From Elusimicrobiota bacterium (GTDB lineage: Bacteria > Elusimicrobiota > Elusimicrobia > Elusimicrobiales > UBA9959), in assembly GCA_018829985.1 (NCBI GenBank), contig JAHJSU010000251.1:1-43247 (forward strand): a stretch of DNA of 43,247 nt, given 5' to 3'. Below, one piece after another: positions 3,616 to 38,566 of this stretch. Position 1 is the stretch's first letter; every line of letters starts with the position of its first letter. A program made the position numbers and the translations under genes. Under the pieces are notes generated by a model. The model made no database searches, was not told the DNA's origin, and worked only from the letters and a program-made list of their open reading frames with translations.

Positions 3616-6009
3616 ATGGGAAATCAAATCCTTTTTAACTGCGTAAAGCCCTCCAGATTCGCTTTAAACCCGCGCCGGGCCGATTATTACGATGTTTCGG
3701 ATATCATAATGAGCGGCCGGTACAAGGCGCCCGATGAGGATATAAAGGCGCTTGAAGATATAGACCTGATCTACAGAACGCTCGTCGCCGTGCTCTATAA
3801 TTTCGTTCCCGCCTCCGGCCATCCCGGCGGCAGCATCTCCTCGGGCAGGATAGTTCAGGCGCTGCTTTTCAGTTCGATGGATTATGATTTTTTCGAAGCC
3901 CAACGGGACGATAACGATATGATCGTCTACGCGGCCGGCCACAAGGCCCTGGGACTTTACGCGCTCTGGGCCCTGCGGAACGAACTCATCCGCGCGTCCG
4001 GCTCAAAGAACCTGCCGGAGCAGAAACTGCAGCTCAGGCTTGAAGATCTGCTGGGCTTCCGAAGAAACTCCGTAAACAATACCCCGCTTTTCAAAAAATT
4101 CAACGCCAAGGCGCTGGACGGACATCCGACGCCGCGGACCCCTTTTGTGAAGATCGCCACCGGAGCTTCAGGCGCGGGCGTGGGCGCCGGCGTCGGGCTG
4201 GCGTTCGCGGCCATGGACGCCTACGGCGGCCTCGCGCCGAAAGTAAATATCATCGAGGGCGAAGGCGGCCTGACCTCCGGCCGCGCGGCCGAGGCTATGG
4301 CATGCGCGGCGACCGCCCAGCTTTCAAACGCCGTTATGCACCTGGACTGGAACCAGGCGTCCATCGACTCCGACAGTGTCTGCCCTGAAAACTCCAGACC
4401 GGGAGATTATGTGCAGTGGTCGCCGGCCGAGCTGGCCTACCTCAACGACTGGAACGTCGTAAATGTTTCGAACGGTCATGATTTTTGTCAGATACTTACC
4501 GCCCAGAAATTCGCCGCCGACAGCGCCGCCAACAGACAGCCCACGGCCGTGGTGTACCGGACCGTCAAAGGCTGGAAATACGGCCTTGAAGGCAGGGCCG
4601 CCCACGGCGCCGGACACAAGTTCGCCTCCGACGGCTACTACTCCGCGACGGCCGAGTTTGAGCATGAATTTGGAGTTGCGATGCCCCGTGCGCGCCTTGA
4701 GGCGGACGCGCTCCTCCCCGACCCCGCTGCCGTCGAGAAATGTTTTTATGACACCTTGATGGCTGTAAGAAAAGCCGTTGAAAAAGCCCCGGCGCTGTCA
4801 AAATTCGCGCTGGGCAGGCTTGTTGCGGCCGCAGAAAGGCTTAACGCGCTGCGCAGGGCGCCCGGAGCCGGCGCCCCCAGGCCTGAAAAAGCCTATGCGC
4901 TGAAACCCGGCGAACCTCCGGCTGAGCTTAAATTCCCGCCCGGCGGAAAAATATCCCTGAGAGAAGCGCTCTCGCTGGGCCTTAATCATATCAATCGCGC
5001 CACCGGCGGCGCGGTCATAGCGCTGGCCGCGGATCTCTACGATTCCACCAGCGTGCGCCTTATCGGAAAAGGTTTCGGCGAGGGCTTCTACAATGCGGTT
5101 TCCAACCCGAAATCGCGGCTTCTCCCGGCGGGCGGCATCTGCGAGGACGCCATGGGCGCCGTCGCGTCCGGCATGGCGGGCTTCGGTCATCATATAGGCG
5201 TCACCTCTTCCTATGCCGCCTTTATAGCGCCGCTGGAGCATATTTCCGCCCGGCTTCACGTTATCGCTCAGCAGAACCGCGCGTTGCTGGATGGCCGGCC
5301 CTATAACCCGTTCATAATGATAAACGCCCACGCCGGCGCAAAGACAGGCGAGGACGGTCCGACGCACGCCGACTACCAGTCCCTGCAGCTTCTGGAAGGC
5401 AATTTTCCCGCGGGGTCGGTCATCACACTGACGCCCTGGGAACCGGCGGAACTATGGCCGCTGTTGGCCCGGGCCCTGGCTTTGAGGCCCGCTGTTATAG
5501 CGCCCTTTGTCACCAGGCCGCCCGAAAAGACCGTCGATCGCCGGGCCATGGGACTGCCCCCGGCCGAGGAAGCGGCCAAAGGCGTTTATTATATGCTCAA
5601 AGCCGGTCCAGGCAAACCCCGCCACGGCACCGTGGTGCTTCAGGGCAACGGAGCAGCAGCGGTCTTCGCGCACGAAATCCTGCCCAGGATACGGAAAGCG
5701 GGATTTAATCTGAACGTCCTGTACGTCGCCTCAAAGGAACTTTTTGAACTTTTAAGCGGCGGCGAGAGGGAAAAGATCTTTCCGGAAGAACTGGCCATGG
5801 AAGCCATGGGAATAACCGATTTTACCCTGCCCACCATGTATTACTGGGTCAGGTCCGGAGAAGGGATCGCCCGGACGCTTCACCCGTTTAAAAAGGGCCG
5901 TTACCCGGGCAGCGGCAGGGCTTCGGATGTGCTTAAAGACGCCGGCCTTGACGCCCGCGCCCAGTTTGACGCCGTAAAAGATTATGCGGAGTATATGGAG
6001 AAAAGGTAA
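3616..6009 (+). CDS. Transketolase-like ThDP-dependent enzyme (atypical, ~797 aa)
   Basis: Motifs SGHPGGSIS, AAGHK, LDGHP, ATGASG, GEGG...EA..LDWN, GICEDAMG, GEDGPTH. ATG at 3616 preferred over TTG 3595. Stop codon lies in a MITE TIR. Confidence 0.88.
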   Translation: MGNQILFNCVKPSRFALNPRRADYYDVSDIIMSGRYKAPDEDIKALEDIDLIYRTLVAVLYNFVPASGHPGGSISSGRIVQALLFSSMDYDFFEAQRDDNDMIVYAAGHKALGLYALWALRNELIRASGSKNLPEQKLQLRLEDLLGFRRNSVNNTPLFKKFNAKALDGHPTPRTPFVKIATGASGAGVGAGVGLAFAAMDAYGGLAPKVNIIEGEGGLTSGRAAEAMACAATAQLSNAVMHLDWNQASIDSDSVCPENSRPGDYVQWSPAELAYLNDWNVVNVSNGHDFCQILTAQKFAADSAANRQPTAVVYRTVKGWKYGLEGRAAHGAGHKFASDGYYSATAEFEHEFGVAMPRARLEADALLPDPAAVEKCFYDTLMAVRKAVEKAPALSKFALGRLVAAAERLNALRRAPGAGAPRPEKAYALKPGEPPAELKFPPGGKISLREALSLGLNHINRATGGAVIALAADLYDSTSVRLIGKGFGEGFYNAVSNPKSRLLPAGGICEDAMGAVASGMAGFGHHIGVTSSYAAFIAPLEHISARLHVIAQQNRALLDGRPYNPFIMINAHAGAKTGEDGPTHADYQSLQLLEGNFPAGSVITLTPWEPAELWPLLARALALRPAVIAPFVTRPPEKTVDRRAMGLPPAEEAAKGVYYMLKAGPGKPRHGTVVLQGNGAAAVFAHEILPRIRKAGFNLNVLYVASKELFELLSGGEREKIFPEELAMEAMGITDFTLPTMYYWVRSGEGIARTLHPFKKGRYPGSGRASDVLKDAGLDARAQFDAVKDYAEYMEKR

Positions 6010-6118
6010 CTACTCAGGTCTGTCGTCGTAGTGGCAGAGTTTACTCTGCCCAAAAAGGCAAAGCAAGCTTTGCCACTACAAAAAATACGTGAAAAATACG
6101 GAGAACCTGAGTAGTTAC
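6006..6118. mobile_element. GTAAC-TIR MITE, cargo type B (REP doublet), 113 bp
   Basis: GTAACTACTCAGG...CCTGAGTAGTTAC with perfect 8-bp TSD GAGAAAAG (5998-6005 / 6119-6126). Matches copy at 15209-15321. Confidence 0.93.
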
Positions 6119-6126
6119 GAGAAAAG

Positions 6127-6205
6127 ACTAAAGGATAAAGGCTGAAGGATGAAGGAAAAAACACAGGGAAACAAAGAGATTGTTCCGTCCTTTAGCCTTT
6201 ATCCT
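6127..6205. repeat. Periodic palindrome (7-nt AAGGATA/AAGGCTG units)
   Basis: taaaggataaaggctgaaggatgaagg ... cctttagcctttatcctt. Confidence 0.75.
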
Positions 6206-6232
6206 TAACGCTACCATGGAGGTCACACTATA

Positions 6233-6682
6233 ATGCAGATTCAGGAAAAGCCCTATCTAACCGGCCGGACTTTCATGTTCAGCATTCAAAAAGGCGAAGA
6301 TCTGCTGCAGGCCGTGCAGTATTTCTGCCATCATCATCAGCTCCGCTGCGGTCTGATAACCGCCATAGGGTCGGTTGAGAGAGCTACTTTCGGAGTTTAT
6401 GACCAGAAGGCGAAAAAATACGTGAAGATAAATATTGAAAAGGAACTTGAGGTGCTGTCGCTTTCCGGCAACGTCAGCCTGTTCGACGACAAACCCATGG
6501 TCCACGCCCATCTCATGCTCGGCGATATCGAAGGGAAGGCCTACGGCGGGCATCTGATGGCCGGCACCAGGGTCTTCAGCCTGGAGGTGTTCATCCAGGA
6601 GCTTACCGGCGAACTGAAGGTCCGCAAAATCGAAAAGGCCACGCAGCTCCCGCTCTGGACCAACCCGCTCGGCTCGAAATAA
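6233..6682 (+). CDS. PPC-domain / DUF296 (AF0104-like) protein
   Basis: Motifs GEDLL, TAIGSV, EVLSLSGNVS, HAHL, GGHL. GGAGG SD. Confidence 0.9.
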   Translation: MQIQEKPYLTGRTFMFSIQKGEDLLQAVQYFCHHHQLRCGLITAIGSVERATFGVYDQKAKKYVKINIEKELEVLSLSGNVSLFDDKPMVHAHLMLGDIEGKAYGGHLMAGTRVFSLEVFIQELTGELKVRKIEKATQLPLWTNPLGSK

Positions 6683-6686
6683 CAGC

Positions 6687-6807
6687 AGGTAAAGGTACAC
6701 GTACGGGAACCGCAGATAAAGGTAAAGGCACAGGCAGGGTAAATTGAAGCTTCCTCACTCTACCTAAACCTCTACCTTTACCTACACCTTCACTTTCACC
6801 TTTACCT
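6687..6807. repeat. Periodic palindrome (6-nt AAGGTA-like units)
   Basis: aggtaaaggta/aaggtaaaggca on the left, tacctaaacctctacctttacctacacctt...acctttacct on the right. Confidence 0.6.
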
Positions 6808-6820
6808 TCTCCTGCATCTT

Positions 6821-7738
6821 ATGGATAACGCACAAGCGTCGGAAACCTTCAGGGCGGGCTTCGCGGCTATCACGGGCCTGCCCAACACGGGCAAATCCAC
6901 TCTTTTGAACGCCTTTTGCGGAACCCGGCTTTCCATCATTTCCCCGAAACCCCAGACCACGCGGAACAATATCCTGGGCATCTTGAACACCCCCGGCTGC
7001 CAGGCGGTTTTCGTGGACACGCCGGGACTCCTGAACCCGCGCACTCTTTTTGAAAAAAGCATGTCCAACGCCATAAAAATGGCCGCCGCGGAAGAAGGCG
7101 ACCTGGTGATGCTGCTGGTCGAACCGCGTCTCCCCCCGCCGGAAAAAATGGAGTTTTTTGAGCGTTTCAGGAACGTCCGTGTCCCGCTCTACCTTGTAAT
7201 AAACAAGCTGGACCTGGCCGCGAAAGGTTCGTCCGAGGCCGCGAAGACGGCCGGGGTTTTCAGCTCGCTTCTGACGATCAAAAAGACTTTTTTCATCTCG
7301 GCGTTGGCGGGAACCGGCGTCAGGGAACTGAAAAAAGAGTTGCTCGCGGCTTTGCCGCTCCATCCGCCTTATTATCCCCAGGACCAGCTTACCGACCGCT
7401 GGGAGCGCTTCTACGCCGCCGAGATAATACGCGAGCAGATCTTCAACCTTTACTCGGAAGAGATACCTTACGCTTCAGCCGTGGAGATAGAGGTTTTCCG
7501 GGAAACGCCCGGCCTGCCGGATTATATTATGGCCGGCGTGCATGTGGCGAAAAAAAGCCAAAAGCCGATAATTATCGGCAAAGGCGGCCGGCAGATAAGG
7601 ATCTTGCGCGAGCATGCCCAGGCCGCGATAGGTAAATTCCTGGGCCGGCCGGTCAAGCTGGAACTGACGGTCAAAGTGACCGGGGACTGGCAGAACAACG
7701 CCGCATTCCTCAGGGAAATCTATGACAAAAAACAATAA
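6821..7738 (+). CDS. era: GTPase Era
   Basis: GLPNTGKSTLLN, SPKPQTTR, DTPG, NKLD, EIIREQI..EEIPY and KH-domain IIIGKGG. Confidence 0.96.
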   Translation: MDNAQASETFRAGFAAITGLPNTGKSTLLNAFCGTRLSIISPKPQTTRNNILGILNTPGCQAVFVDTPGLLNPRTLFEKSMSNAIKMAAAEEGDLVMLLVEPRLPPPEKMEFFERFRNVRVPLYLVINKLDLAAKGSSEAAKTAGVFSSLLTIKKTFFISALAGTGVRELKKELLAALPLHPPYYPQDQLTDRWERFYAAEIIREQIFNLYSEEIPYASAVEIEVFRETPGLPDYIMAGVHVAKKSQKPIIIGKGGRQIRILREHAQAAIGKFLGRPVKLELTVKVTGDWQNNAAFLREIYDKKQ

Positions 7739-8255
7739 CCCGCCCCCTGCTCCAAAGGCGTGGGTTAACTTCGCGTACGCGCTTGTGCTTTATGCGGGTT
7801 TCTCGGCTTTTCTGATGTCCCTGCAGTTCTTTCTCTCGGGGACGCTCGTTTACGCGTTTTTCAGGACGCTGAACTTCGCGTTCGGGCCCGAGAGGCTGTA
7901 CTGGGTGAAGACGACGGGGTATGACGCGCTTGGTTTTGCCTTTCTTGCGGTCACGAACACGGTATTTCAGTATTATATGGCAAGCATGCTCTCGCGCGAT
8001 CTGAAGAACGGGCCGCGTCTTCTCCGTTCGCCCGGAGCGAACTTAGCGGGGCTTTTCGGCATTTTATTTCTTTCGTGCGGGATCTCGGCCCTGTTTTTTC
8101 TCAAACTGGCCGCGAAATCAAGTTTCAGTTCTTATGTGCTGGCCGCCTTTCCGCTGATAATATCTTATCTGCTGGGCGGGGTGCTGGGCCTTATACAGAA
8201 AGAGGAAGAAAACCCTTTCCGCAATTCCAAAGTGAAAATATTCAGGCTGGGCTGA
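7722..8255 (+). CDS. Hypothetical integral membrane protein (~4 TM)
   Basis: 177 aa with several hydrophobic segments, overlaps the era stop. Confidence 0.75.
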   Translation: MTKNNNPPPAPKAWVNFAYALVLYAGFSAFLMSLQFFLSGTLVYAFFRTLNFAFGPERLYWVKTTGYDALGFAFLAVTNTVFQYYMASMLSRDLKNGPRLLRSPGANLAGLFGILFLSCGISALFFLKLAAKSSFSSYVLAAFPLIISYLLGGVLGLIQKEEENPFRNSKVKIFRLG

Positions 8256-8268
8256 CCAAAAAAGATCA

Positions 8269-8296
8269 GGCCGCTTTTTATTTTTAAAAAGCGGCC
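8269..8296. terminator. Hairpin between convergent genes, possible bidirectional terminator
   Basis: GGCCGCTTTTTA-TTTT-TAAAAAGCGGCC inverted repeat. Confidence 0.5.
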
Positions 8297-8308
8297 CGGC
8301 CCCTTTCT

Positions 8309-9598
8309 TTAAAACTCCGTTTTGCTGACAAAGTTAAAATCCCGGACCGTTATCGGGGGGATCGAGGTGTAGATCATTTCCTTTTCCTTCCCTATCTCGG
8401 CCGTATTATGGAACAGGTCGAAAACGCTCTGGTTGAAGCGGAAGTTATTGACGCTCCCGGCCAGCTTCCCGTCCTTTATCCTGAAAACCCCGTCTCTCGT
8501 CATGCCGGTAAAAATGCCGTCCATCAGGTCGACCAGCCGGATATACCAGAAGCTGTTGACGTACAGTCCGTTTTCCACGTTTGAAACAAGCTTGCCGGCG
8601 GGTTTATCCGTGCCCTTGAAAATGACGTTCGCAGGGAATTTTCCCGTCGCCTGAACCCCCTTCTTCGCAGCGTAGAACCTTGAGTGCCAGGGGCGCGCGA
8701 GTTTTCCGTTCCTGATCATATCAAAACCGATATAAGGCATGGCGTCTTCCGGCGAGAAAGGCGACAGGCTGACCTTCTCGTGGTCCGGCTTTGAATAAAT
8801 ATGTATCGCTTCATCCGCGATGCGCTCGCCCGGCCTTTTTGAGAAAGCGGTCCGTCCCTCGTCTATCGCCTTCGCGTCCATGTTGTGCCAGAGGAACATC
8901 ATAAGAAGCTCTTCAACGGCCGGAGGCCCCAGCACGACGGTGTATTTGCCGGCTTCCAGGGAAGCGGGATCAGCGGAAAGCCGCGCGTTGCCGATAATAT
9001 TCGCGAGGAACGCTTCCCCGTCATAGTCGGAGAAGTCTTTTGAGACGTGAAAATCCTTGAACGAGGAGTTTCCCGTCATGGCCGTAAGGGCGAATGTGGA
9101 ATAGCAATTGTTGTGTGAAACGCGCACGCCTTTGTTATTGTATACCTCGACAGTATACGGGTTCGTGGAGAGGCTGCCGGCGGAGTTCAGACCGGCTTTT
9201 TTAAGCTCCCTGAACGCGTCCCGGAGGATGCCGTATTTTTTGCCGTCGGACAGTTCCCCGAAGGCGGGCTTGAAATGTTTTATGGCCTGCGCCTCCTCGT
9301 TCGTCACGGGAGGCATATATTCCGGGTCTTTCGGCAGGAGTTTCGCCGCCTCATACGCTTTTTTTACCGCGTGCGTTACGCCGTCTTCCGAAAGATCGTT
9401 CGTCCTGTATGACCCGATCCTGCCGTCATAACCTACTTCGACCTTCACTTCCTCCTCCAGTTTGAACAGGTTTTCCCTGTTCACGGAATTATTGGAGAAC
9501 CTTATGTGATGCGTCTCGCTTTTTCCGTAACAGACTACGACATGGTCCGTCACGGGCTTCTTCAATATTTTTTCTATGATCAAATCCGGTCTTTTCAT
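8309..9598 (-). CDS. tldE: TldE/PmbA-family protein
   Basis: HIRFSNN, GKYTVVLGPPAV, GLYVNSFWYIR, TGMTRDG, NFRFNQS. Translationally coupled to tldD. Confidence 0.88.
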   Translation of the reverse strand: MKRPDLIIEKILKKPVTDHVVVCYGKSETHHIRFSNNSVNRENLFKLEEEVKVEVGYDGRIGSYRTNDLSEDGVTHAVKKAYEAAKLLPKDPEYMPPVTNEEAQAIKHFKPAFGELSDGKKYGILRDAFRELKKAGLNSAGSLSTNPYTVEVYNNKGVRVSHNNCYSTFALTAMTGNSSFKDFHVSKDFSDYDGEAFLANIIGNARLSADPASLEAGKYTVVLGPPAVEELLMMFLWHNMDAKAIDEGRTAFSKRPGERIADEAIHIYSKPDHEKVSLSPFSPEDAMPYIGFDMIRNGKLARPWHSRFYAAKKGVQATGKFPANVIFKGTDKPAGKLVSNVENGLYVNSFWYIRLVDLMDGIFTGMTRDGVFRIKDGKLAGSVNNFRFNQSVFDLFHNTAEIGKEKEMIYTSIPPITVRDFNFVSKTEF

Positions 9599-11034
9599 TA
9601 TTTCGCCCTCCGTACCATGATCTTCCTGAACCTGGCCGGGCTTGCCCCGTGGGTCATCTGGGCCAGCTGCATGGGATCGCCTTTCCCGCAGGTTATGAAC
9701 CCCGCCCGTTTAAAAGACCTTTCATCGGCTATGGCGTCGCAGCTGCGCCAGAACTCGTAGGAGATCGCGTTATATACGACGTTTTTCAGCATGCCCGTGA
9801 GCTTCCCTTTTTTTATTTCCCAGAAAGCGTCCCCGCCGAACTGCATATTGAGCCGCATCTGGTCTATGCTGAACGAACCCATGCCTTCGATGTAGATCCC
9901 GTCATCGGTGTCCGCGATCAGTTCTTCAACCGAGAGAGGCTTCGCGCCGGGCGCCAGATAGAGGTTCGGTATCCTGGTAATAGGGACATCGCAGTACTTG
10001 GCGGCCCTTGTGGTGCCGTTCGCGCGCTCCATTTTCATCCTGTGGGCGAGTTCCCGGTTCACCCCGTATCCCGTAAGTATCCCGTTTTTTATCATGTGCC
10101 ACTTCCGGCATTCAACGCCCTCGTCGTCGTATCCGCAGCTCGCGAGCCCCCCCTCAAGGGTGTTGTCCGCGATAAAGTTGACGATCTCGGAACCGTATTT
10201 AAAATTATTAAGCTTCTCCATGGTCGCGAAACTCCTGCCGGCGCAGGACTCTTCATAGCCGAGAACGCGGTCAAGCTCCGTCGGATGCCCTACGGACTCG
10301 TGCATGGTAAGGGAAAGGTGCTCCGGATCAAGTATAAGCGTGGCAGTCCCGGTTTCGCAGGACCTGGCAAAACAGTGCTCGCGGGCCTGCGCGGCTATCC
10401 TTTCCGCGTTGGTCTTGAAATCTATCCCCCTGAAATATTCATAGCCGGCATTCATGGGAGCGGGCCAGTAATGCCGCGTTTTCACCTCGCCGCCGGCCCT
10501 GGCCGTGGCTTCGATCTGGGGGAGCACGGTGAAGACGTCGGTTTCTATTACAGAGCCTTCCGTATTGGCGTATTTCTTCTTCATGTTCCGGAACACAAGA
10601 TAGGAGCCCGCTTTGATAACATCCTTTCCTTTCAGTATCGTTTCGCCGGCCTGGAGGAGCACGCCGACGGCGTCGCTCACTTTCACGTCGAACGGGTCTT
10701 CCTTTATCGTCGTCGAGAATTTCGCGGTATGCCTGGGCTCTCCGGCCAGTTCAACGGCGCCTGCCGCGGATTTGTCCGCGCTTTTGGCGAGAGCCAGCGC
10801 CTTGTCGGCGGTTTTCCTGAGGGCGGCCGGGTCCGTCCTGCTTGTGGAGGCGTAACCCCAGCCGTTTTCCCAGAGCGCTTTTATACCGACGCCGGAAACG
10901 TTCTGTTCGGTTATCTGTTCCACGCGGGTGTCTTCCGTTGTAATTTCCCGCTCGCGGAAAAGATGTTCCCGCGCGTCCGCGAAACGGACCTTTTTTCCCG
11001 CCAGATAGCTTATGATCTCCCTGAGGTTGTCCAT
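9598..11034 (-). CDS. tldD: TldD-family metalloprotease
   Basis: HESVGHPTELDR, YDDEGV, SFSIDQMRLNMQFGG, CGKGDPMQ...HGASPARF. Confidence 0.93.
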   Translation of the reverse strand: MDNLREIISYLAGKKVRFADAREHLFREREITTEDTRVEQITEQNVSGVGIKALWENGWGYASTSRTDPAALRKTADKALALAKSADKSAAGAVELAGEPRHTAKFSTTIKEDPFDVKVSDAVGVLLQAGETILKGKDVIKAGSYLVFRNMKKKYANTEGSVIETDVFTVLPQIEATARAGGEVKTRHYWPAPMNAGYEYFRGIDFKTNAERIAAQAREHCFARSCETGTATLILDPEHLSLTMHESVGHPTELDRVLGYEESCAGRSFATMEKLNNFKYGSEIVNFIADNTLEGGLASCGYDDEGVECRKWHMIKNGILTGYGVNRELAHRMKMERANGTTRAAKYCDVPITRIPNLYLAPGAKPLSVEELIADTDDGIYIEGMGSFSIDQMRLNMQFGGDAFWEIKKGKLTGMLKNVVYNAISYEFWRSCDAIADERSFKRAGFITCGKGDPMQLAQMTHGASPARFRKIMVRRAK

Positions 11035-11078
11035 ATATTCCTTATTTTCTTATTTGAGCTGGTTTGCATCCTTAAATT

Positions 11079-31236: not shown

Positions 31237-31293
31237 TATTAAACAGTAAAATCCGGCAAGAGGTGATTTTGCCGGTTACATAAAGGAGCCGCG

Positions 31294-31566
31294 ATGAATC
31301 AGAACGCTTTAATGCAGTTCGTGCCGTTAATTATAATAATGTTCATATTTTATTTCCTGCTGATAAGGCCGCAGCAGAAACAGATGAAAGAAAGGAACGC
31401 CATGCTTGCGAACCTTAAAACCGGCGACAAGGTGCTTACCAACGGCGGGATTATCGGGCTGATCATCGGCATCAGGGAAGACGAACTGGAAGTGGAAATC
31501 GCCAAAAGCGTCAAAGTCACCATGGTAAGGTCCTCGGTGGCCGGCCTTGCAAATCAGAAAAAATAG
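31294..31566 (+). CDS. yajC: Preprotein translocase subunit YajC
   Basis: IFYFLLIRPQQKQ, LKTGDKVLTNGGIIG. AGGAG SD. Confidence 0.96.
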   Translation: MNQNALMQFVPLIIIMFIFYFLLIRPQQKQMKERNAMLANLKTGDKVLTNGGIIGLIIGIREDELEVEIAKSVKVTMVRSSVAGLANQKK

Positions 31567-31596
31567 TCACCGGCGGAGCCGCCTCTAAGGAGATTT

Positions 31597-33030
31597 ATGA
31601 ACACCTTGCACTGGAAATTAGGCCTTGCGCTGGGCCTCCTGATACTTTCGGTCTGGCTCCTGTACCCTACCGTGGAATGGTACACAAAGCCGGCGGATGA
31701 AAGGAGCAAGCTTGAAGCCATCAAAATGCGCCCCAAGAAACTGCTCAATCTGGGCCTGGATCTGCGGGGCGGCACCCACATGCTGCTGGAACTGGACGTC
31801 GAGAAACTTGATAAGAAAACGGATTTAGCCGACGCCCTTGCCCGCGCCATCGAGATCATCCGCAACAGAATAGACCAGTACGGCGTGGGGGAAACCCCCA
31901 TCTCCAGGCAGGGCGAACGCTGGATCTCCGTGGACCTGCCCGGCATCTCCAACACCGAAGAAGCTGAAGATCTTATAGGCAGGACCGCGCTGCTTGAATT
32001 CAGGCTGGTGAATACCAGTCCCGAAGCGGAGAATGCCCTGACCAGGGTCGCCGAACTTAACGAATCCCCTTTCGCCAAAGACGGCGCGCTTAACCCGGAA
32101 ATAGCCAAACTGATGCCGAAAGGCGCCCGGCTGTTCAGGGCCTCCAGCGACGAAGACGGCGCCCGGACGAAATATTATGTTCTGGAATCTACCGTCTCCA
32201 TCACCGGCGCCTATCTTGAAAACGCCAGGGTTCAGACCGACAATCAGTTCGGCACTCCCAATATCGCGTTCACCTTTAATAAGGAGGGCGGCAAGATTTT
32301 TGAGAGTTTTACCGGAAATAATGTCGGCAAATACCTCGCCATCGTGCTTGACGATGTGGTGCATTCCGCCCCGGTCATAAAATCCAGAATAGGCGGCGGC
32401 TCCGGGGTCATAGAAGGCTCTTTCACCATAGAGGAAGCCAGAAACCTTGCGATCGTGCTGCGCGCGGGCGCCCTGCCGGCCCCGGTGAGGATAATAGAAA
32501 AAAGAGTCGTCGGCCCCGATTTGGGAGAAGACTCCATCAAAAAAGGCCTGACCGCTTCCGTGGTCGGCTTTCTGGCGGTCGTCCTGTTCATGATGGTCTA
32601 TTACAAGGCCGGCGGCCTTGTCGCAAATATCGCCCTCGGCATGAACTTCGTGCTGCTGATAGCGGCAATGAGCTATTTCTCGGCCACGCTTACGCTGCCC
32701 GGCATAGCCGGCATGATCCTAAGCCTGGCGATGGCCATAGACGCGAACGTTCTTATCCTTGAGAGAATGCGCGAGGAACTGGCGTTGTCGAAGCCTATTC
32801 AGCTGATCATCCCTACCGCCTACGACAAAGCCTGGAGCGCGATCCTGGATTCCAACGTCACCACCTGGATAGCGGCCATTTTCCTGTTCCAGTTCGGTTC
32901 GGGTCCCGTCAAGGGCTTCGCCGTCACGCTTACCATCGGCCTGTTGTGCGGTATGTTCACTTCGGTATTTATCACCAGGGCCATTTATGAATTCTGGCTT
33001 ACTTCCAACCCCAAGGAGCTTAGCGTATGA
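31597..33030 (+). CDS. secD: Protein translocase subunit SecD
   Basis: LGLDLRGG, LAIVLD, LRAGALPAP, VGPDLG, TLTLPGIAG, DANVLILER, ILDSNVTT, GPVKGFA. Confidence 0.97.
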   Translation: MNTLHWKLGLALGLLILSVWLLYPTVEWYTKPADERSKLEAIKMRPKKLLNLGLDLRGGTHMLLELDVEKLDKKTDLADALARAIEIIRNRIDQYGVGETPISRQGERWISVDLPGISNTEEAEDLIGRTALLEFRLVNTSPEAENALTRVAELNESPFAKDGALNPEIAKLMPKGARLFRASSDEDGARTKYYVLESTVSITGAYLENARVQTDNQFGTPNIAFTFNKEGGKIFESFTGNNVGKYLAIVLDDVVHSAPVIKSRIGGGSGVIEGSFTIEEARNLAIVLRAGALPAPVRIIEKRVVGPDLGEDSIKKGLTASVVGFLAVVLFMMVYYKAGGLVANIALGMNFVLLIAAMSYFSATLTLPGIAGMILSLAMAIDANVLILERMREELALSKPIQLIIPTAYDKAWSAILDSNVTTWIAAIFLFQFGSGPVKGFAVTLTIGLLCGMFTSVFITRAIYEFWLTSNPKELSV

Positions 33031-33917
33031 TGATCCTCATCGGAAAGACAAATATCAATTTCATAGCTAAGCGGCACATATTTTTTGCCGTTTCAGGCCT
33101 CGCCCTGGCCGTGGGCATCGTTTCCGTGGCGGTCAAAGGCGCGAACCTGGGCCTTGATTTCACCGGCGGAACGCTTCTTCAGGTGAAGTTTGACAAGCCG
33201 ATAACCATTTCGGAGGTCAGGCGGGCCGTAAAAGCCGCCGGCATAGAAGCCGGCATTCAGACCTTTATCGGCCGGAACGCCTTCGCCTTAAAAGTCAAAG
33301 GCAGGCAGGAAAACGTTAATGAGATAGCCGATAAGCTCCTTCAGAGCCTTAAGTCCAATATCCAGGGCAATACTTTTTCGGAAGAAAGAAGGGATTATGT
33401 CGGGCCGGTGGTCGGCAGGGACCTTAGCAAGAAAGCCCTGTTCGCCATAATACTTTCCCTGTTCGGCATCATCATTTACGTGGCGTTCAGGTTCTCGAAC
33501 CCCGTCTGGGGCGCGGCGGGCGTTATCGCGCTGCTGCATGACGTGTTTGTGACCTTCGGCGCCATGTCCATAACCAACCGGGAAGTGGACCTGGTGGTCG
33601 TGGCGGCGCTTTTGACCATAGCCGGCTATTCCATCAACGACACGATAGTTATCTTCGACCGGATGCGCGAGAATATAAGAAAGTTTCCCAAAATGCTGCT
33701 CGGCGAGCTGATCAACGTCAGCGTCAACGAAACGCTCTCAAGGACCCTTATCACGAACATGTCGGTTCTGGGCATAGTGCTGATACTTTTCATATTCGGC
33801 GGCGACGTCATAAACAACTTCGCGTTCGCCATGCTGGTGGGCAGTATTGCCGGCACTTATTCCACCATAGCCATCTCCACCCCGCTGGTCTATCAGTGGG
33901 AGCGCCGGAGGAAGTAA
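33027..33917 (+). CDS. secF: Protein translocase subunit SecF
   Basis: LGLDFTGG, VGPVVG, ALLHD, GYSINDTIVIFDRMRE, TLSRT, GTYST. Confidence 0.97.
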   Translation: MMILIGKTNINFIAKRHIFFAVSGLALAVGIVSVAVKGANLGLDFTGGTLLQVKFDKPITISEVRRAVKAAGIEAGIQTFIGRNAFALKVKGRQENVNEIADKLLQSLKSNIQGNTFSEERRDYVGPVVGRDLSKKALFAIILSLFGIIIYVAFRFSNPVWGAAGVIALLHDVFVTFGAMSITNREVDLVVVAALLTIAGYSINDTIVIFDRMRENIRKFPKMLLGELINVSVNETLSRTLITNMSVLGIVLILFIFGGDVINNFAFAMLVGSIAGTYSTIAISTPLVYQWERRRK

Positions 33918-33924
33918 GCAGCCC

Positions 33925-34018
33925 GCTGGACAGCTAGACAGCGTGACAGCTGGACAGCTTTTTAAAGGAATTATAGACCTTATAGCTGCCCAGCCGTCTA
34001 GCTGCCTAGCCGTCTAGC
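33925..34018. repeat. Periodic palindrome (8-nt GCTGGACA/GCTAGACA units), no TIRs
   Basis: gctggacagctagacagcgtgacagctggacagc ... agctgcccagccgtctagctgcctagccgtctagc. Confidence 0.78.
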
Positions 34019-34039
34019 TTACCCACATATGGAGCGACA

Positions 34040-34750
34040 GTGCGCAAGATAAAAAAGTTCAAGATTCCCATCTACAGCTACGACATCTTGCGCAAGGCCA
34101 AAAAGCGTAAAATAGATCTGTTCGCTTTAGGGCTGTCCGCGCAGGAAAGCGCCAAAGAATATATAGCCTCGATTGCCGCCGCCATAGAGCCCGCCGTTGT
34201 TTTTGATTTCCTGGGACCGGAAGACCCGCTTGCCAAAGGTCCGGGGCCTCTTGAAGGCGGGGCGCTCACCCTGGGCGTCATCACTTTAGGCGCCGCTTTC
34301 GCGGACAAGCTAGGGGGCATTAAGGAACCCGGCCTTTTCAGGCTGGCGGAAACGGCCGCGCTGGTATTCGGCGACACGGGCCTTAAAGTCATAACCGAAC
34401 TTATAGCGCAGGAAACCGGAATGGAAGGCTTTGAACCCGGCGGCGCCGAGTACCTGTACGCCTGCCCGGAGCCTGAAGCGGAAAACCGGCCGGCGGCCTG
34501 CCCGCCTCCGCCAAACAGTCCGGCGGATCCGCCTCCGGCGGAAAGCGACCAACCGGCGCCGGTTTGCACACCCGGCAGACGGGCCGGCACGAACCCCGGG
34601 ATCATAGCGTCGGCATTAGCAAGGCTCCAGGCCGATAAAATAGGGGTCAGATTTGAGAACGGAGCGCTCAGCCCGAAATATTCCTTCCTTTTCGCCATCC
34701 CCTGGCTGTCCAGGAAAAAGAAGAAAATATCCGCCGCTCCCCGGAATTGA
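34040..34750 (+). CDS. Hypothetical protein, weakly resembling a stand-alone B12-dependent methionine synthase activation domain
   Basis: GTG start with GGAG SD; IEPAVVF, GVITLG, IGV....L.PKYS..FAI pattern; central Pro-rich insert. Confidence 0.6.
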   Translation: MRKIKKFKIPIYSYDILRKAKKRKIDLFALGLSAQESAKEYIASIAAAIEPAVVFDFLGPEDPLAKGPGPLEGGALTLGVITLGAAFADKLGGIKEPGLFRLAETAALVFGDTGLKVITELIAQETGMEGFEPGGAEYLYACPEPEAENRPAACPPPPNSPADPPPAESDQPAPVCTPGRRAGTNPGIIASALARLQADKIGVRFENGALSPKYSFLFAIPWLSRKKKKISAAPRN

Positions 34751-34865
34751 AAGGCTAAAGGATAAAGGCTGAAGGATGAAGGAAAAGATACAACGGTTTT
34801 TTCGCCCCTTAGCCTTTATCCCTAATCCTTTATCCTTCCCGAAAAATTCAATTGAATTTTTCGGG
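34751..34865. repeat. 7-nt periodic palindrome + perfect 28-bp P2 palindrome
   Basis: aaggctaaaggataaaggctgaaggatgaagg ... ccttagcctttatccctaatcctttatcctt; CCCGAAAAATTCAATTGAATTTTTCGGG at 34838-34865. Confidence 0.85.
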
Positions 34866-35534
34866 TTTATCCACCGCCTGGCGGCTCTGGCCGTGTGTCT
34901 TTACCTGAGGCTGGTGGGGTTTACTACTTCCATTAAGTTCCACGGCGCGTCCGTTCCTCCGCCTCAGGCTGACGCTGAAGCCGCGGAGGCCGCGCCCTCG
35001 GGAGTTGGGCAGGTCATATACGTCATCTGGCACTGCCAGCAGGCCTTCCTGATTTACGCCCATCGCGGCCGGGGCATAACCGCGCTGGCAAGCAGAAGCA
35101 GGGACGGGGAATATGCGGCGGAGCTGCTGAAGCGTTTCAATTATGTCCTGGTGCGCGGCTCCACCAGTTCCGGCGGCCTGCGGTCCCTGATCCAGCTTAT
35201 CCAATGCGCCCGGGACGGCCGCACGCTGGCCATCACGCCGGACGGCCCGAAGGGCCCGGCCCGCAAAGTGCAGAAAGGCGCGGTTTACCTGGCCCGGAAA
35301 ACGGGCCTGCCTGTAATAGCCATAGCCGGCGCTCTGACTAATAAGATTTCGGCCCGCTCCTGGGACCGGTTCCAGATACCCCTCCCGTTCGGCAAAGCCG
35401 TTATCGCCTATTCGGCGCCGTTTTACGTCGCGCAAGCGTCCAGCCTTGAAGAAAAGGCGGCGGAGCTTGAAAAGATCCTGAATGAAACCGAACTTAAGGC
35501 CGAAGAACTGCTTAAGGCCGGGAACAACAGTTGA
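34776..35534 (+). CDS. DUF374 / lysophospholipid acyltransferase-family protein
   Basis: IWH, ASRSRDGE, VRGSTS.GG, AITPDGPKGP, SWDRF.IPLPFGK. Start and stop both lie in repeat elements. Confidence 0.88.
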   Translation: MKEKIQRFFRPLAFIPNPLSFPKNSIEFFGFIHRLAALAVCLYLRLVGFTTSIKFHGASVPPPQADAEAAEAAPSGVGQVIYVIWHCQQAFLIYAHRGRGITALASRSRDGEYAAELLKRFNYVLVRGSTSSGGLRSLIQLIQCARDGRTLAITPDGPKGPARKVQKGAVYLARKTGLPVIAIAGALTNKISARSWDRFQIPLPFGKAVIAYSAPFYVAQASSLEEKAAELEKILNETELKAEELLKAGNNS

Positions 35535-35728
35535 TAAGTGGGGAACGGCAGGAGATAAAGTTGTTAGAGTAAATACTCTCTTACTTAGTTACTACTCAGC
35601 CACAAAGTCACAAAGACACGAAGGAAATCAGACAACAAACCGTTTGATCCATAAACTTTCTTTGTGCCTTGGTGTCTTAGTGGCTAGTTACCTTACTTAT
35701 CAACTTGTCAACCAGTCAAATTATCAAC
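35529..35728. repeat. 8-nt periodic palindrome interrupted by nested type-A MITE
   Basis: agttgataagtggggaacggcagg ... [MITE] ... cttatcaacttgtcaaccagtcaaattatcaact. Inverted sister of 15331-15402. Confidence 0.78.
35588..35691 (-). mobile_element. GTAAC-TIR MITE, cargo type A, 104 bp (4-bp deletion in one TIR)
   Basis: GTTACTACTCAGCC...GTGGCTAGTTAC with perfect TSD CTTACTTA (35580-87 / 35692-99). Confidence 0.93.
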
Positions 35729-35740
35729 TCCTGCGCTACT

Positions 35741-37123
35741 ATGGGAACGATCCTCTTTTTTTTCTACAACCTCCTTACCCCATTCATAGCATTGCTATAT
35801 CTCGTCTTTTTTATTTTTTCGCCGCGCCGGAGATTGTTGAGAAGTTTTCTTTCCGAACTGGGCGAAAGATTCGGGGTTTCCGGGGCGGCTCTGCCGGAGA
35901 AGCCGATCTGGCTTCACGCGGCGTCCGTGGGCGAAGCTAAAGCCGTTAAAAACCTGGCGGCAATCCTTAAGGAGAAATTCCCGGCGGCCGCCGTTATGAT
36001 AACCACCTCCACCTGGGCCGGACGGACGGAGGCGCTGAAACTCACCCCTCACGCGAGACTCTTGCCGCTTGATTTTTATCCGTTCATGAAAAAGTTCATA
36101 ACCAGGGCCAGGCCCGGGATACTGCTGATAGCCGAAACGGAGATCTGGCCCAATATGCTCGTCTGCGCGGCCGCGGCCGGGGTTAAAATCTGCATAATAA
36201 ACGGGCGCATGTCGCAAAAAACGCTCATCCTTTACCGGATCTTCTTTCCGCTGACGGCCAAAATCTTCTCGGGCGTGGAAAAGATACTCGCGGCTAGCGT
36301 CCCGGACGCCGCCAACTACGCCAAACTCCTGAAAGACGACTCAAAAGTCGCCGTCACCGGGAACATGAAATATGACGCACTGGATACCGGGCCGGATAAA
36401 CTTGAAGGGATAAACGTCTTTCTGAAAAAAATATCCTGGACGGGAAAAACCGTCTGGACCGCGGCCAGCACCCACCGGGGCGAAGAAGAAGCGATATTGG
36501 ACTCCTACCTGGCTCTCAAAAAAACCAGCCCCGGTTTAAAACTGGTCATTGTCCCCCGCCACCCGGAGCGGGCCGGGGAGACACGGGCGCTGCTGGCCCT
36601 TAAAAACATCCCCTTTATCGTCTGGAGCGATAGAGCTAGAGGGATGTTTCCATACTCCTCCCCCTTTATGGGGAAGGGCGAGGGTGGGGGCAGTCCCGAC
36701 TGCCTGCTGGTAGATGAAATTGGCTGGCTTATAAATTTCTATTCTCTTTCCGCCGCCGCGTTTGTGGGCGGGACGCTGGTGAACGTGGGCGGCCATAACC
36801 TGCTTGAACCGGCTTCTTTTTCAAAGCCGGTCCTGTTCGGACCTTATGTGCAGAACACCAGGGAAGCCGCTGAAATGCTTTTAAAAACGCGCGGCGGATT
36901 CATGGTTGAGGACGGAGAGGAATTGCGCGCGAGGCTCGCCGTCCTGCTGAAAGACCCCAAGCTCTTAAAAACCGCCGGCGGCAACGCCAAAAAAGCCCTT
37001 GAAAACCTCCAGGGCGCCACAGCCAAAACGATCGCGATAATAGAAAAATATGTAGCTGCTCAGCAGCAAGAAAACCACGGAGACACAGAGAACACAGAGA
37101 AACACGGAGGAAAAACTCCGTGA
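35741..37123 (+). CDS. waaA: 3-deoxy-D-manno-octulosonic-acid (Kdo) transferase
   Basis: IWLHAASVGE, PLD, ETEIWPN, INGRMS, TGNMKYD, ASTH.GEE, VPRHPER, FVGGTL..GGHN.LEPA, PVLFGP. ATG at 35741. Confidence 0.95.
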   Translation: MGTILFFFYNLLTPFIALLYLVFFIFSPRRRLLRSFLSELGERFGVSGAALPEKPIWLHAASVGEAKAVKNLAAILKEKFPAAAVMITTSTWAGRTEALKLTPHARLLPLDFYPFMKKFITRARPGILLIAETEIWPNMLVCAAAAGVKICIINGRMSQKTLILYRIFFPLTAKIFSGVEKILAASVPDAANYAKLLKDDSKVAVTGNMKYDALDTGPDKLEGINVFLKKISWTGKTVWTAASTHRGEEEAILDSYLALKKTSPGLKLVIVPRHPERAGETRALLALKNIPFIVWSDRARGMFPYSSPFMGKGEGGGSPDCLLVDEIGWLINFYSLSAAAFVGGTLVNVGGHNLLEPASFSKPVLFGPYVQNTREAAEMLLKTRGGFMVEDGEELRARLAVLLKDPKLLKTAGGNAKKALENLQGATAKTIAIIEKYVAAQQQENHGDTENTEKHGGKTP

Positions 37124-37161
37124 AACTCCGTGCTTTCTGTGCCTCTGTGGTGAGCAGTTAC
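37052..37161. mobile_element. GTAAC-TIR MITE, cargo type E (CACAGAG-type units), 110 bp, old
   Basis: GTAGCTGCTCAGC...GTGAGCAGTTAC; arms ccacggagacacagagaacacagag / ctccgtgctttctgtgcctctgtgg; TSD not recognisable. Confidence 0.72.
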
Positions 37162-37947
37162 AAGGAATTCAGGATTATACGCATATTACTATTATTATTC
37201 ATCCCCGTTCTGCTGTTCGCGGGGGAAAGCGGCTGGAACACCCGGTGGACGTCCCATTTCCTGATCCACCAGGAAAACAGCCGGTCCGCTAAGGGGGTCG
37301 GCGCGGAGATGGAGAAGATCTTCCGCGGCCTGCGGAAAGAACTGTGGTCATTAAGTTCGTGGATGGACACGGAAAAGGTGGAGGTATATCTTTATAAGGA
37401 CCGCAAAAGCTATCTTGAGGGCCGGTTCAAGCCGCCTGAATGGTCCGGCGGAATGGTTTATAAATCCGGGCGTCGCGGCGCGCAATGGTCGCTGGCCGTA
37501 TATGAGCCCTTCAGCCCGAAAACCGTCGCCCATGAACTGACGCATTTATATTTTGCGAGTTTCTTTAAACGGGTTCCCGGGCGCCTCCCTCTTTGGCTTA
37601 ACGAGGGCCTGGCTGTAATGATGGTGGAGGAGACGGCCGGCCGGGTGAAGCCCTCGTACCGCGGGCCTCCCGTGGACAAGGCGATCCCGGCGGAGGTTTT
37701 CTTAAAGCTGAAGAAGATCCCAAATTCCGATTCCGGTTCCGTGCAGGATTTTTATTCGCAGGCGCACAGCGTCGTCCGCTTTCTTAAAAAGGGGAATTCC
37801 CCGTTCAAATTTGAGAAATTCTGCCGGCAGCTGCGGGACGGGGAACAGGTTGAGCGCGCTTTATTCAGCGCTTACGGCTTCGGCAGCATGGAAAAGTTCG
37901 AGAAGGCCTGGAAAAAATGGGCCGCCCCGCCCGGCCCCGGCAAGTAA
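37120..37947 (+). CDS. Exported gluzincin-type (peptidase MA-like) metallopeptidase
   Basis: Signal-like RILLLLFIPVLLFA; HELTH...PLWLNEGLA; FY.QA.S.V.FL. The first start codon (GTG 37120) lies in a MITE. Confidence 0.8.
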   Translation: MKLRAFCASVVSSYKEFRIIRILLLLFIPVLLFAGESGWNTRWTSHFLIHQENSRSAKGVGAEMEKIFRGLRKELWSLSSWMDTEKVEVYLYKDRKSYLEGRFKPPEWSGGMVYKSGRRGAQWSLAVYEPFSPKTVAHELTHLYFASFFKRVPGRLPLWLNEGLAVMMVEETAGRVKPSYRGPPVDKAIPAEVFLKLKKIPNSDSGSVQDFYSQAHSVVRFLKKGNSPFKFEKFCRQLRDGEQVERALFSAYGFGSMEKFEKAWKKWAAPPGPGK

Positions 37948-37957
37948 TCCTTATTTC

Positions 37958-38009
37958 GTAACCACTCAGGTAGCCGCAGGCTTTAGCCTGCGTCCGCCTA
38001 AGGCGGACG
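37958..38009 (+). mobile_element. Orphan GTAAC TIR fused to GTAG-type REP and GTCCGCC hairpin
   Basis: GTAACCACTCAG-GTAGCCGCAGGCTTTAGCCTGCG-TCCGCCTAAGGCGGAC. No matching right end with TSD CTTATTTC seen in the window. Confidence 0.65.
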
Positions 38010-38024
38010 ACTATTTTCCCTTTT

Positions 38025-38566
38025 TCAATACAACATTAAAGGTGTTTCTTCAATCTTGCCGATTACCGGATTCACTTTAATGCCCAACATCTCTAATGTA
38101 ACGCAGCCTATTAAAACTTTGTCTATGATATCGGATATCCAGATTGTCTGAATATCCTCTTTCTTGCCGATAGTGATAATAATTCTGCCCTTGTCTATTT
38201 CAATATTCCCCGCGCCGGTTTCAACCTGTTCCCTCATAAATGTTTGAATGCCTAATTCATCAGCAAGAACTCTTGGTATGGTGGTTAAAGTAGCGCCGGC
38301 ATCTATCAATCCTTTCACATCTTTAGCCCTGGTTTTATCGGTGTTTGCTATATGCACATCAATCGTAACTACTCAGGCCTGTCTCGCGCAAAGCCGCAAA
38401 GCTCGCAAAGAAAAGTCCAAACCCCGAATTATAAGCCATTTACAAATTGTATTATGCATCCTTTCTTTGCGCCTTTGCGCCTTTGCGCGAGTATCAGTTT
38501 TGATTAAATTCCTGATAACTTTATCCCGCTACCTGAGCAGTTACCATTAATCCATGTATGACCCAT
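38025..38566 (-). pseudogene. Clan AA aspartyl protease (AF_0612-like) interrupted by a MITE
   Basis: GAGGAG SD + ATG 38566 gives MGHTWIN, then the MITE, then VHIANTDK...LIDAGATLTTIP...LIGCVTLEMLGIKVNPV. AT-rich. Catalytic DTG appears as DAG. Confidence 0.85.
38365..38544. mobile_element. GTAAC-TIR MITE, cargo type D (CGCAAAG units), 180 bp
   Basis: GTAACTACTCAGG...CCTGAGCAGTTAC; TSD CATCAATC / CATTAATC; arms cgcgcaaagccgcaaag / ctttgcgcctttgcgcctttgcgcg. Confidence 0.9.

Follow-up and report, generated by a model that had tools for sequence, protein, structure and literature searches.

Distribution of the elements in the window

Repeats bounded by one short terminal sequence are scattered over the window, by which we mean the whole 43,247-bp stretch of DNA analyzed. 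The 12-mer GTAACYRYTCAG has 21 matches in the window with at most one mismatch, against 0.74 expected from shuffles; the highest count in any shuffled window was 3, and none of 100 shuffles reached 21. Our re-derived element list confirms the preliminary description, which had counted 11 complete elements with shared ends and two single ends, the former comprising five copies of type A, two of type B and one each of types C, D, E and F.

The type A copies lie at 11079-11186 (target-site duplication, TSD, CTTAAATT), 21970-22077 (CCTGTTCC) and 31129-31236 (TATTAAAC; used as the A reference), all 108 bp long, at 35588-35691 (CTTACTTA), where the right end is 4 bases short, and at 28490-28597 (GATTTTTA), nested in an F-type element; each of these duplications matches at 8/8 positions. 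The outer F-type element (28441-28678, variant F2) has a degenerate left end, ACAGCTGCTCAG, and flanks that agree at 7/8 positions. Both type B copies are 113 bp long, one at 6006-6118 (TSD GAGAAAAG, 8/8) and the other at 15209-15321 (7/8). The remaining complete elements are of type C (14251-14397, 147 bp, with arms of GCTAGACA-like units and flanks agreeing at 6/8), type D (38365-38544, 180 bp, CGCAAAG arrays, TSD 7/8) and type E (37052-37161, 110 bp, CACRGAG arrays). All six perfect TSDs are as originally listed, and the near-perfect ones at 15209, 38365, 28441 and 14251 stand as well, but the flanks of the type E element at 37052 agree at only 4/8 positions. The single ends are an F-type right arm truncated by the contig start (1-48, minus strand, terminal repeat at 37-48) and a solo left end (37958-37969, plus strand) for which no partner was found. 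Two C-like inverted arrays without terminal repeats, also noticed before, are present at 29770-29860 (heptamer/octamer units) and 33925-34020.

Two elements touch reading frames. A TAA within the end of the type B element at 6006-6118 now terminates the upstream transketolase-like ORF, and the type D element at 38365-38544 has inserted close to the 5' end of a short ORF resembling aspartyl proteases.

Target-site duplications and minimal ends

The window belongs to the assembly of a groundwater bacterium (G000; 3.5 Mb, 96% complete, binned from short reads, shortest contig 2,051 bp). The GTAACYRYTCAG end occurs 701 times in this assembly, and 125 of its 724 contig ends fall inside such elements; the F-type right arm, CGCAGAT units followed by CTGAGCAGTTAC, is found at many contig starts. 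Perfect 8-bp TSDs flank 102 of 186 testable end pairs of at most 300 bp, compared to 1 of 189 when the flanks are shifted by 10 bp. The genome-wide frequency, which had been proposed as a test, is therefore about 100-fold above the control. Only a length of 8 fits, with 1, 1, 0 and 0 perfect duplications at the alternative lengths 6, 7, 9 and 10; the G000 elements share this length with the IS66/ISBst12 elements, while IS4/Tn5-type enzymes generate 9-bp duplications. The 104 perfect TSDs are 74% A+T (genome, 45.5%), with W at positions 2-7. Altogether 111 units have a perfect TSD, and they represent 22 distinct pairs of arm types.

As is characteristic of IS66/ISBst12 elements, the terminal inverted repeats start with GTAA; for IS66, inverted repeats "starting with GTAAGCG" have been reported (PMC11946415). 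Across 33 arm clusters, conservation is limited to positions 1-12, together with a G or C at position 13 in all 33, and the shortest end pair in G000 spans 49 bp. These data are consistent with the earlier suggestion that almost no subterminal sequence is needed, as only positions 1-13 are common to the 33 arm types.

Empty sites and composite elements

At the sites orthologous to the window's B copies at 6006 and 15209, a genome of the same genus (G001, contig C1) is empty and has the 8-mer once. F without the A insert is found in several G026 copies (e.g. C9, C37, C2), with an 8-bp overlap between its arms, and the uninterrupted F target of the nested A element occurs there and once in G000. 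The empty-site alleles that had been asked for thus exist. Contigs of four runs yielded no clean empty-site joint, which is weak evidence as contigs cannot show absence. Short, non-coding, multi-copy, bounded by terminal inverted repeats and TSDs, and absent from orthologous sites of relatives, the elements have the properties of MITEs. Type A was not found in G001, G002, G021, G026 or G028, and its spread therefore postdates the split from G001.

The nested composite of A in F has itself been amplified at least 36-fold: G000 contains 63 F-left/A junctions and 36 A/F-right junctions, but only one uninterrupted F. Perfect TSDs surround 6 of 70 candidate pairs with one internal end and 4 of 18 with two (shifted controls, 0 and 0). 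Type B has 62 full-length copies, of which 36 are identical and 52 have a perfect TSD. With a mean divergence of 1.05%, compared to 3.6% for A, B is the younger burst, so that the view of type A as the recent one has to be revised; much of the spread of A occurred as the F::A composite.

GxxExxY cassettes as cargo

Two longer elements of G000 carry a gene. The element at C15:902-1376 (475 bp, TSD 7/8) holds an intact GxxExxY gene (TIGR04256, 128 bits), and the element at C92:1311-1854 (544 bp, TSD 8/8) a frameshifted one; with IS-type ends and a TSD around a non-transposase gene, both are mobile insertion cassettes (MICs). Types A and D are deletion derivatives of these two: A lacks 368 bp of the C15 element and is identical to it at 102 of 107 common positions, and D lacks about 362 bp of the C92 element (169 of 180 positions identical). 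GxxExxY cassettes consist of a small PD-(D/E)XK gene (PF13366/TIGR04256) between inverted arrays of 7-9-nt units, and the A and D families, with gene and inverted arrays in one member and gene-less miniatures as the others, have this organization. By their architecture, types C, E and GGTTCA belong to the same class. The cargoes, which had been considered unrelated, are hence related in the case of A and D and, judging by architecture, of C and E; B is a doublet of hairpins.

Arrays also accompany such genes elsewhere. In nine other genomes of the order, all 11 GxxExxY loci examined have inverted arrays and lack the ends described here, and across many phyla at least two CRCRRAG units lie within 200 bp in 75 of 80 GxxExxY loci, as opposed to 5 of 151 control stretches.

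An IS66-family element with the same ends in a related genome

In G001, a 2,436-bp element (L005:32-2467) has the same ends, GTAACTACTCAG and GTAACTGCCCAG. Its ORF2 encodes a transposase with zf-IS66 and DDE_Tnp_IS66 domains (PF03050, 1e-47; NF033517, 283 bits against a cut-off of 180), and its ORF1 is DruA-like (PF14236, 2e-34). This full-length copy has no TSD (AGAAATTG versus GAAACCTA). In a 1,202-bp deletion derivative (L001:2017-3218), the ends are perfect and a C-terminal remnant of IS66 is left. Beyond the terminal positions, the two ends of the IS have nothing in common. When the arms were compared with the subterminal sequences of 25 IS elements (24 full-length ones and the L001 derivative), no match extended beyond the repeat at E<=0.05, except for chance-level 11-mers.

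Among metagenomic relatives, 35 of 38 examined have both of these ends; of 27 testable for TSDs, only 5 have a perfect one and one matches at 7/8. The transposase clade that keeps the ends spans 43-78% amino-acid identity. All 10 ORF1s tested, including that of L005 and those of seven metagenomic two-gene elements, are DruA, and no tnpA/tnpB-like ORF was found. The closest autonomous elements are two-gene elements (DruA-like plus transposase), not one-gene elements. Single-ORF relatives (L138, L157) also exist; in metagenomes, such single-gene relatives with these ends are 1.52-1.57 kb long.

The genomes rich in ends are G001, G026, G028, G012 and G021. Above-cut-off IS66 DDE matches occur only in G001, G026 and G028, and the DruA+IS66 element of G028 has different ends; G012 (15 ends) and G021 (25 ends) have no IS66 match. 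In the window's own assembly, PF03050 gave 0 matches, and tblastn and blastn searches with the G001 element found nothing. The expected IS66 transposase with the same ends is present in G001 and in metagenomes, and with nearly the same ends in ISDge4, but not in the G000 assembly.

Discussion

The elements are very probably non-autonomous members of an ISBst12-like branch of the IS66 family, namely MITEs and two gene-carrying MICs. The proposal that an ISBst12-group IS66 transposase acts in trans is supported, as empty sites, a transposase with these ends in a related genome and TSDs far above chance were all found. Because the assembly contains no such transposase, we only infer that an ISBst12-like enzyme did the moving in this organism.

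Together, the sequence data suggest a model in which a DDE transposase, provided in trans, would read little beyond the terminal 12-14 bp, GTAACT(A/G)CTCAG(G/C). It would join any two inverted ends and insert the segment between them into an AT-rich N-W6-N target, of which 8 bp are duplicated. Since so little end sequence appears to be required, any DNA that happens to be enclosed by two ends would become mobile. We infer that cargoes were captured in this way. They would include the F left arm, possibly a remnant of the IS itself, GxxExxY nuclease cassettes, which have inverted heptamer arrays, as well as miniatures of them without the gene (A, D and, judged by their layout, the C, E and GGTTCA types), the pair of GTAG...CTAC hairpins of B, and nested composites. 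As no arm matches IS subterminal sequence beyond the repeat, the support for F being descended from the IS comes down to 21 bases that both have.

It is possible, although rather unlikely, that the elements are fossils, the transposase having been lost from the lineage and movement having ceased. A 96% complete assembly without the transposase would fit, as would, weakly, the lack of a clean empty-site joint in contigs of the four runs. However, the near-identity of the B copies and their many perfect TSDs, as well as the spread of A after the split from G001, speak for recent movement, and a multi-copy IS of 1.5-2.5 kb would likely be lost from a binned short-read assembly with a shortest contig of 2,051 bp.

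It is improbable that the GxxExxY heptamer-array cassettes are themselves the active partner, inserting into pre-existing minimal end pairs or turning half an element into a palindrome, so that the variety of cargoes would reflect cassette mobility and not capture by transposon ends. The type A arrays adjoin both ends without a spacer in near-perfect palindromes, and the association of GxxExxY genes with arrays in other genomes of the order, where these ends are lacking, and across phyla also points in this direction. Against this model, no empty end pair was found in G000, where the shortest pair has 49 bp, and the distance from end to array varies from family to family (in E, 11 bases on one side). 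Moreover, B and the F left arm, which have no arrays, are equally mobile, and the composites show that the ends alone determine what moves. Another transposase of G000, such as the DruA-Tn5-like fusion at C303:4357-6744, is a highly improbable mover, even though it is the sole DruA-linked transposase of an assembly without an IS66 enzyme, since its Pfam matches (Tnp_DNA_bind, DDE_Tnp_1, Dimer_Tnp_Tn5) predict a 9-bp duplication instead of the 8 bp seen, no GTAAC end lies nearby at up to 2 mismatches, and the ends instead match IS66/ISBst12 elements of G001, of metagenomes and ISDge4 (PMC12898284).

Returning to the ISBst12-like model, the sequences suggest that an IS66/ISBst12-type transposase may require only about 12-14 bp per end and be indifferent to the interior. 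If such ends suffice, IS66/ISBst12 enzymes could serve as very compact transposon tools, and minimal substrates would allow the IS66 mechanism, which has been little studied, to be tested. For genome evolution and assembly, it matters that one end sequence can give rise to dozens of repeat families and fragment a metagenome assembly, as illustrated by the affected contig ends. For at least one genome, the widespread GxxExxY cassettes are connected with a defined route of transposition. A more speculative idea, which we regard as doubtful, is a coupling between two layers of selfish DNA: GxxExxY cassettes would ride ISBst12-type 12-14-bp ends, and any cassette, hairpin or gene that gains an end pair would be amplified by whichever transposase of the widespread clade is present. 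If true, the GTAACTACTCAG end pair would be a shared cross-phylum "address label" for moving arbitrary DNA, and a main route of cassette multiplication within genomes.

Comparison with known systems

MITEs and MICs are moved in trans by IS transposases. The closest characterized counterpart of the ends is ISDge4 of Deinococcus geothermalis, a member of the ISBst12 group that was caught transposing; its terminal inverted repeats are GTGACTACTCAGCA and GTAACTGCTCAGCA, nearly identical to those of our elements, its direct repeats are likewise 8 bp long, and the transposase of the group has about 450 residues and comes without the IS66 tnpA/tnpB genes (PMC12898284). Unlike that group, the window has only non-coding or passenger-carrying derivatives, and the nearest autonomous elements (in G001, and many metagenomic ones) add a DruA/DUF4338 gene upstream of the transposase.

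The interior of B resembles REP sequences, as it is a doublet of GTAG...CTAC hairpins, which are not confined to B; the genome has 134 occurrences of the word GTAGTGGCAAAG and 68 of GTAGCCGCAGGC. To our knowledge, however, REPINs have neither inverted terminal repeats nor 8-bp TSDs. B has both, the latter perfect in 52 of 62 copies, and we rejected it as a REPIN/RAYT element. The genome has 8 Y1_Tnp matches; among four RAYT-like genes looked at, no link to the B hairpins was found, and two are flanked by a different, GGGGACGT-type repeat.

The GxxExxY cassettes of G000 lie within IS66-type ends with 8-bp TSDs, whereas those of other genomes lack both. Like MITEs and MICs, the elements are short and multi-copy, with IS inverted repeats at their borders and the TSD length of the IS, and some hold a passenger gene in place of the transposase, as with the intact GxxExxY gene of C15. 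They differ from MITEs and MICs in that one 12-14-bp end is shared by at least 33 arm types in a single 3.5-Mb genome, and in that nested composites and all four F::A end-pair combinations have moved.

Ends and target-site duplications

The window is contig C220 of an assembly (G000; 3.53 Mb in 362 contigs, 96% complete) that carries 701 copies of the end shared by the short elements of types A-F, counted with at most one mismatch. Nearest plus/minus ends form 219 pairs, with lengths of 100-119 bp in 126 cases, and 102 of the 186 testable pairs of up to 300 bp are flanked by a perfect 8-bp duplication, with a further 17 matching at 7 of 8 positions. Shifting the flanks by 10 bp leaves 1 perfect duplication in 189, and duplications of 6, 7, 9 and 10 bp number 1, 1, 0 and 0, so that target-site duplication is, as the preliminary description had predicted, far above chance genome-wide. 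At 74%, the A+T content of the perfect duplications (n = 104) exceeds the genome's 45.5%, and their positions 2-7 are A or T. Among end pairs up to 15 kb in G000, no duplication of at least 7/8 was found around any that exceeds 544 bp, and six 1.5-kb pairs, considered as large elements, proved to be ordinary, mutually unrelated genes between two miniature elements (MITEs). An element end is found no more than 250 bp from 73 of 362 contig starts and 52 of 362 contig ends, indicating that the repeats break the assembly. In none of 300 further genomes of the phylum does the 13-mer end exceed 34 copies (the count in G186), against 333 in G000.

In the window itself, the 12-mer GTAACYRYTCAG occurs 21 times with at most one mismatch, where 0.74 are expected and 21 was reached in none of 100 shuffles. 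Reading site by site confirmed the 11 complete elements and two single ends noticed originally, as well as all six perfect duplications, exactly as first listed. Those called near-perfect fared unevenly: 7 of 8 positions agree at 15209, 38365 and 28441 (the outer F-type element) and 6 of 8 at 14251, but only 4 of 8 at 37052.

Several further features were seen along the window. A TAA inside the GTAAC end (6006-6009) of the first B element now stops an upstream transketolase-like ORF (3595-6009), whose ortholog in G001, a genome of the same genus, is six codons longer. A type D element lies within a small ORF for a retropepsin-like aspartyl protease (38025-38560; PF13975, 1.7e-06), close to the 5' end, and splits its first codons from the remainder. 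Directly upstream of a type C element, a 77-bp stretch (14158-14234) recurs at several places in G001 (C16, C4, C35, C42) with 91-97% identity and represents a further repeat family. Almost all intergenic regions contain palindromes that have no IS66-type ends and are built from 7-9-nt units in inverted arrays (TTAGGGT, AAGGMTR, GTAGAGT and others), for example at 900-1010, 2320-2400, 6120-6210, 12285-12400, 13285-13410, 17085-17200, 23690-23990 and 26140-26250; two such palindromes are kept at orthologous sites in G001. The cargo-C-like arrays reported to lack ends are indeed present at about 29770 and 33925. Rfam, run on the window and 11 loci, matched one tRNA and no other family.

Remarkably little of each element is held in common. 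The 691 ends with 40 inner bases fall into 33 arm clusters of at least two members plus 97 singletons, and the 33 consensus arms are conserved at positions 1-12 and nowhere beyond position 14; all 33 have G or C at position 13, and 21 have T at position 14. This fits the earlier expectation that hardly any subterminal sequence is needed. The insertion sequence (IS) elements' own two ends likewise have nothing more in common than the conserved end positions. Perfect duplications flank at least one unit in 22 arm-type pairs, 111 units in all: 52 of type B, 15 of type A, 9 and 5 of two GGTTCA types, 6 of a GTAGGC type, 4+2 of type F, 2 each of types E and D, and others.

Empty sites and nested composites

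Empty-site alleles, which the preliminary description expected in relatives, were found for two types. G001 is syntenic with window positions 5000-24000 at 75-92% identity, and its sequence runs uninterrupted through the sites of the B elements at 6006 and 15209, with a single target 8-mer at each. The A element nested in F at 28490 is flanked by GATTTTTA; in G026, a member of a different family of the order, dozens of F copies have abutting arms with GATTTTTA present once (e.g. on C9, C37 and C2). Contigs from four groundwater runs that cover window positions 21500-41400 break at the elements and gave no clean empty-site joint; their summed depth is 1,100-1,660 in bins with elements against about 30-60 elsewhere, a sum over all organisms from which no copy number is drawn.

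The nested copies reveal how freely the ends are used. In G000, junctions between the F left arm and A number 63 and those between A and the F right arm 36, compared with a single uninterrupted F junction, so the insertion of A into F preceded the spread of the composite. Many copies of A adjoin an F arm on just one of their sides. Perfect duplications flank 6 of 70 candidate pairs that enclose one internal end and 4 of 18 that enclose two, the shifted control being 0 in both cases; all four possible end pairs of the composite have thus been used.

Types A and B also differ in divergence. The 62 full-length B copies diverge by 1.05% on average, 36 of them being identical and 52 having a perfect duplication, and B occurs in G001 as well (87-97% identity). 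The 46 A copies diverge by 3.6% (mean; median 1.9%); G001, G002, G021, G026 and G028 yielded no A.

Origin of the cargoes

The interiors had been thought unrelated throughout, which does not hold. G000 has only two genes of the small nuclease family GxxExxY (PF13366, TIGR04256), both inside end-bounded elements. In the first (475 bp, C15:902-1376) the gene is intact, the arms are of type A and the duplication is 7/8; in the second (544 bp, C92:1311-1854) the gene is frameshifted, the arms are of type D and the duplication is 8/8. Type A equals the former minus 368 internal bases (102 of 107 shared positions identical), and type D the latter minus about 362 bases (169 of 180 identical). Units of the C15 arrays read CACNAAG and those of the type D arrays CGCAAAG. 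In nine other genomes of the order, the ends are missing from all 11 GxxExxY loci examined, whose genes lie between inverted arrays with a 7-9-nt unit that varies from locus to locus. At least two CRCRRAG units lie within 200 bp of the gene at 75 of 80 GxxExxY loci from many phyla, compared with 5 among 151 distal control stretches, in inverted orientation on its two sides. As deletion derivatives of elements whose gene is surrounded by such arrays elsewhere, A and D form one class, to which C, E and the GGTTCA types belong by architecture. Our literature searches found nothing on mobility of GxxExxY, and for PDDEXK_3 the function is given as unknown.

Type F may have another source. Its left arm and the right end of the IS locus L129 have 21 bases in common, made up of the 12-bp end together with GTCGCTATG. 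The arm is similar to L005, an IS locus from G001, as well, at the right end, where the transposase stop codon is situated; these likenesses are no more than suggestive of a descent of F from the IS. When the arm consensus was compared with subterminal stretches (148 bp) of 25 IS elements (24 full-length plus the deletion derivative L001), only chance 11-mers resulted.

The B interior consists of two GTAG...CTAC hairpins of a kind that is present outside B too, and their designation as REP remains a resemblance. G000 has eight Y1_Tnp matches; the RAYT-like Y1 transposase genes that were read (C135:15922-16914 and others on C194, C21 and C208; about 300-330 aa) are flanked in two of four cases (C135, C194) by another repeat, of inverted GGGGACGT type. 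A copy of this repeat lies at about 38700 in the window.

The transposase and its companion genes

G000 yielded no IS66 DDE match, and tblastn and blastn with the G001 element gave no hit there. A cognate IS66-family element with the same ends, as foreseen in the preliminary description, occurs in the same genus, in G001. The G001 element (L005:32-2467, 2,436 bp) starts with GTAACTACTCAG and terminates with the complement of GTAACTGCCCAG. Its first product is DruA/DUF4338-like (PF14236, 2e-34) and its second an IS66-family transposase (zf-IS66 and DDE_Tnp_IS66, 1e-47; NF033517, 283 bits at a cut-off of 180); this copy has no target duplication. A derivative of 1,202 bp in G001 (L001:2017-3218) combines perfect ends with a C-terminal remnant of such a transposase. 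Among 40 relatives, the ends number 28 in G001, 25 in G021, 24 in G028, 15 in G012, 13 in G026 and 0-3 in the others, and IS66 matches above cut-off occur only in G001, G026 and G028. The G028 element with DruA and IS66 genes was rejected as a partner, having other ends.

A metagenome scan returned 80 loci related to the G001 transposase (43-78% identity), of which the 38 with most flank were examined and 42 dropped. Both ends are present in 35 of the 38, one end lies at the contig limit in two, and one is doubtful; among the 27 with flanks on both sides, five have a perfect duplication and one a 7/8 match. The elements fall into size classes of 1.52-1.57 kb with one gene (DUF6444, zf-IS66 and DDE in L157), 2.4-2.7 kb with ORF1 and transposase, and about 3.0 kb with an additional 196-aa ORF. 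In some same-ended elements, the transposase gene is followed by another ORF, encoding 196-212 aa (L124:2549-3136, L126:2807-3394, L127:3236-3823, L001:2594-3211, L132:1671-2306), which may be a passenger or accessory gene; a Pfam scan of those from L124, L132 and L001 gave no match.

DruA/DUF4338 is a family of Druantia defence proteins. ORF1 is DruA-like in all ten loci tested (L005:77-1006, L007:51-1055, L010:2592-3467, L124, L145, L148, L153, L181, L185 and L192), making it the conserved first gene of two-gene IS66-type elements, and in G000 a DruA-like gene is fused to a Tn5-like transposase (C303:4357-6744, 791 aa). Judging by this gene arrangement, DruA-like proteins look like transposase accessory or DNA-targeting modules. 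A literature search for DUF4338 with IS66 or DruA found no paper linking DUF4338 to transposases.

Discussion

Together, our data identify the G000 swarm as real, recently active elements that are mobilized in trans and belong to an ISBst12-like branch of IS66. The mechanism originally proposed, an IS66-type transposase acting in trans on short ends, is supported, and none of the outcomes named beforehand as speaking against it occurred. As to kind, such elements (MITEs and passenger cassettes on IS ends) are already known, and in the partial texts returned by a search for IS66 with miniature inverted-repeat transposable elements we found no description of an IS66-derived MITE. IS66 itself is described, in the available excerpt, with inverted repeats starting GTAAGCG and 8-bp direct repeats (PMC11946415). 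The end sequence, too, is already in print, for ISDge4 of Deinococcus geothermalis: according to the excerpted account, this member of the ISBst12 group of the IS66 family encodes a transposase of 449 aa between terminal repeats GTGACTACTCAGCA and GTAACTGCTCAGCA, has an 8-bp direct repeat and was caught transposing (PMC12898284). What the G000 elements add to these known systems is the wide range of cargo borne by a single 12-14-bp end, the nested composites as natural proof, and the coupling to GxxExxY cassettes.
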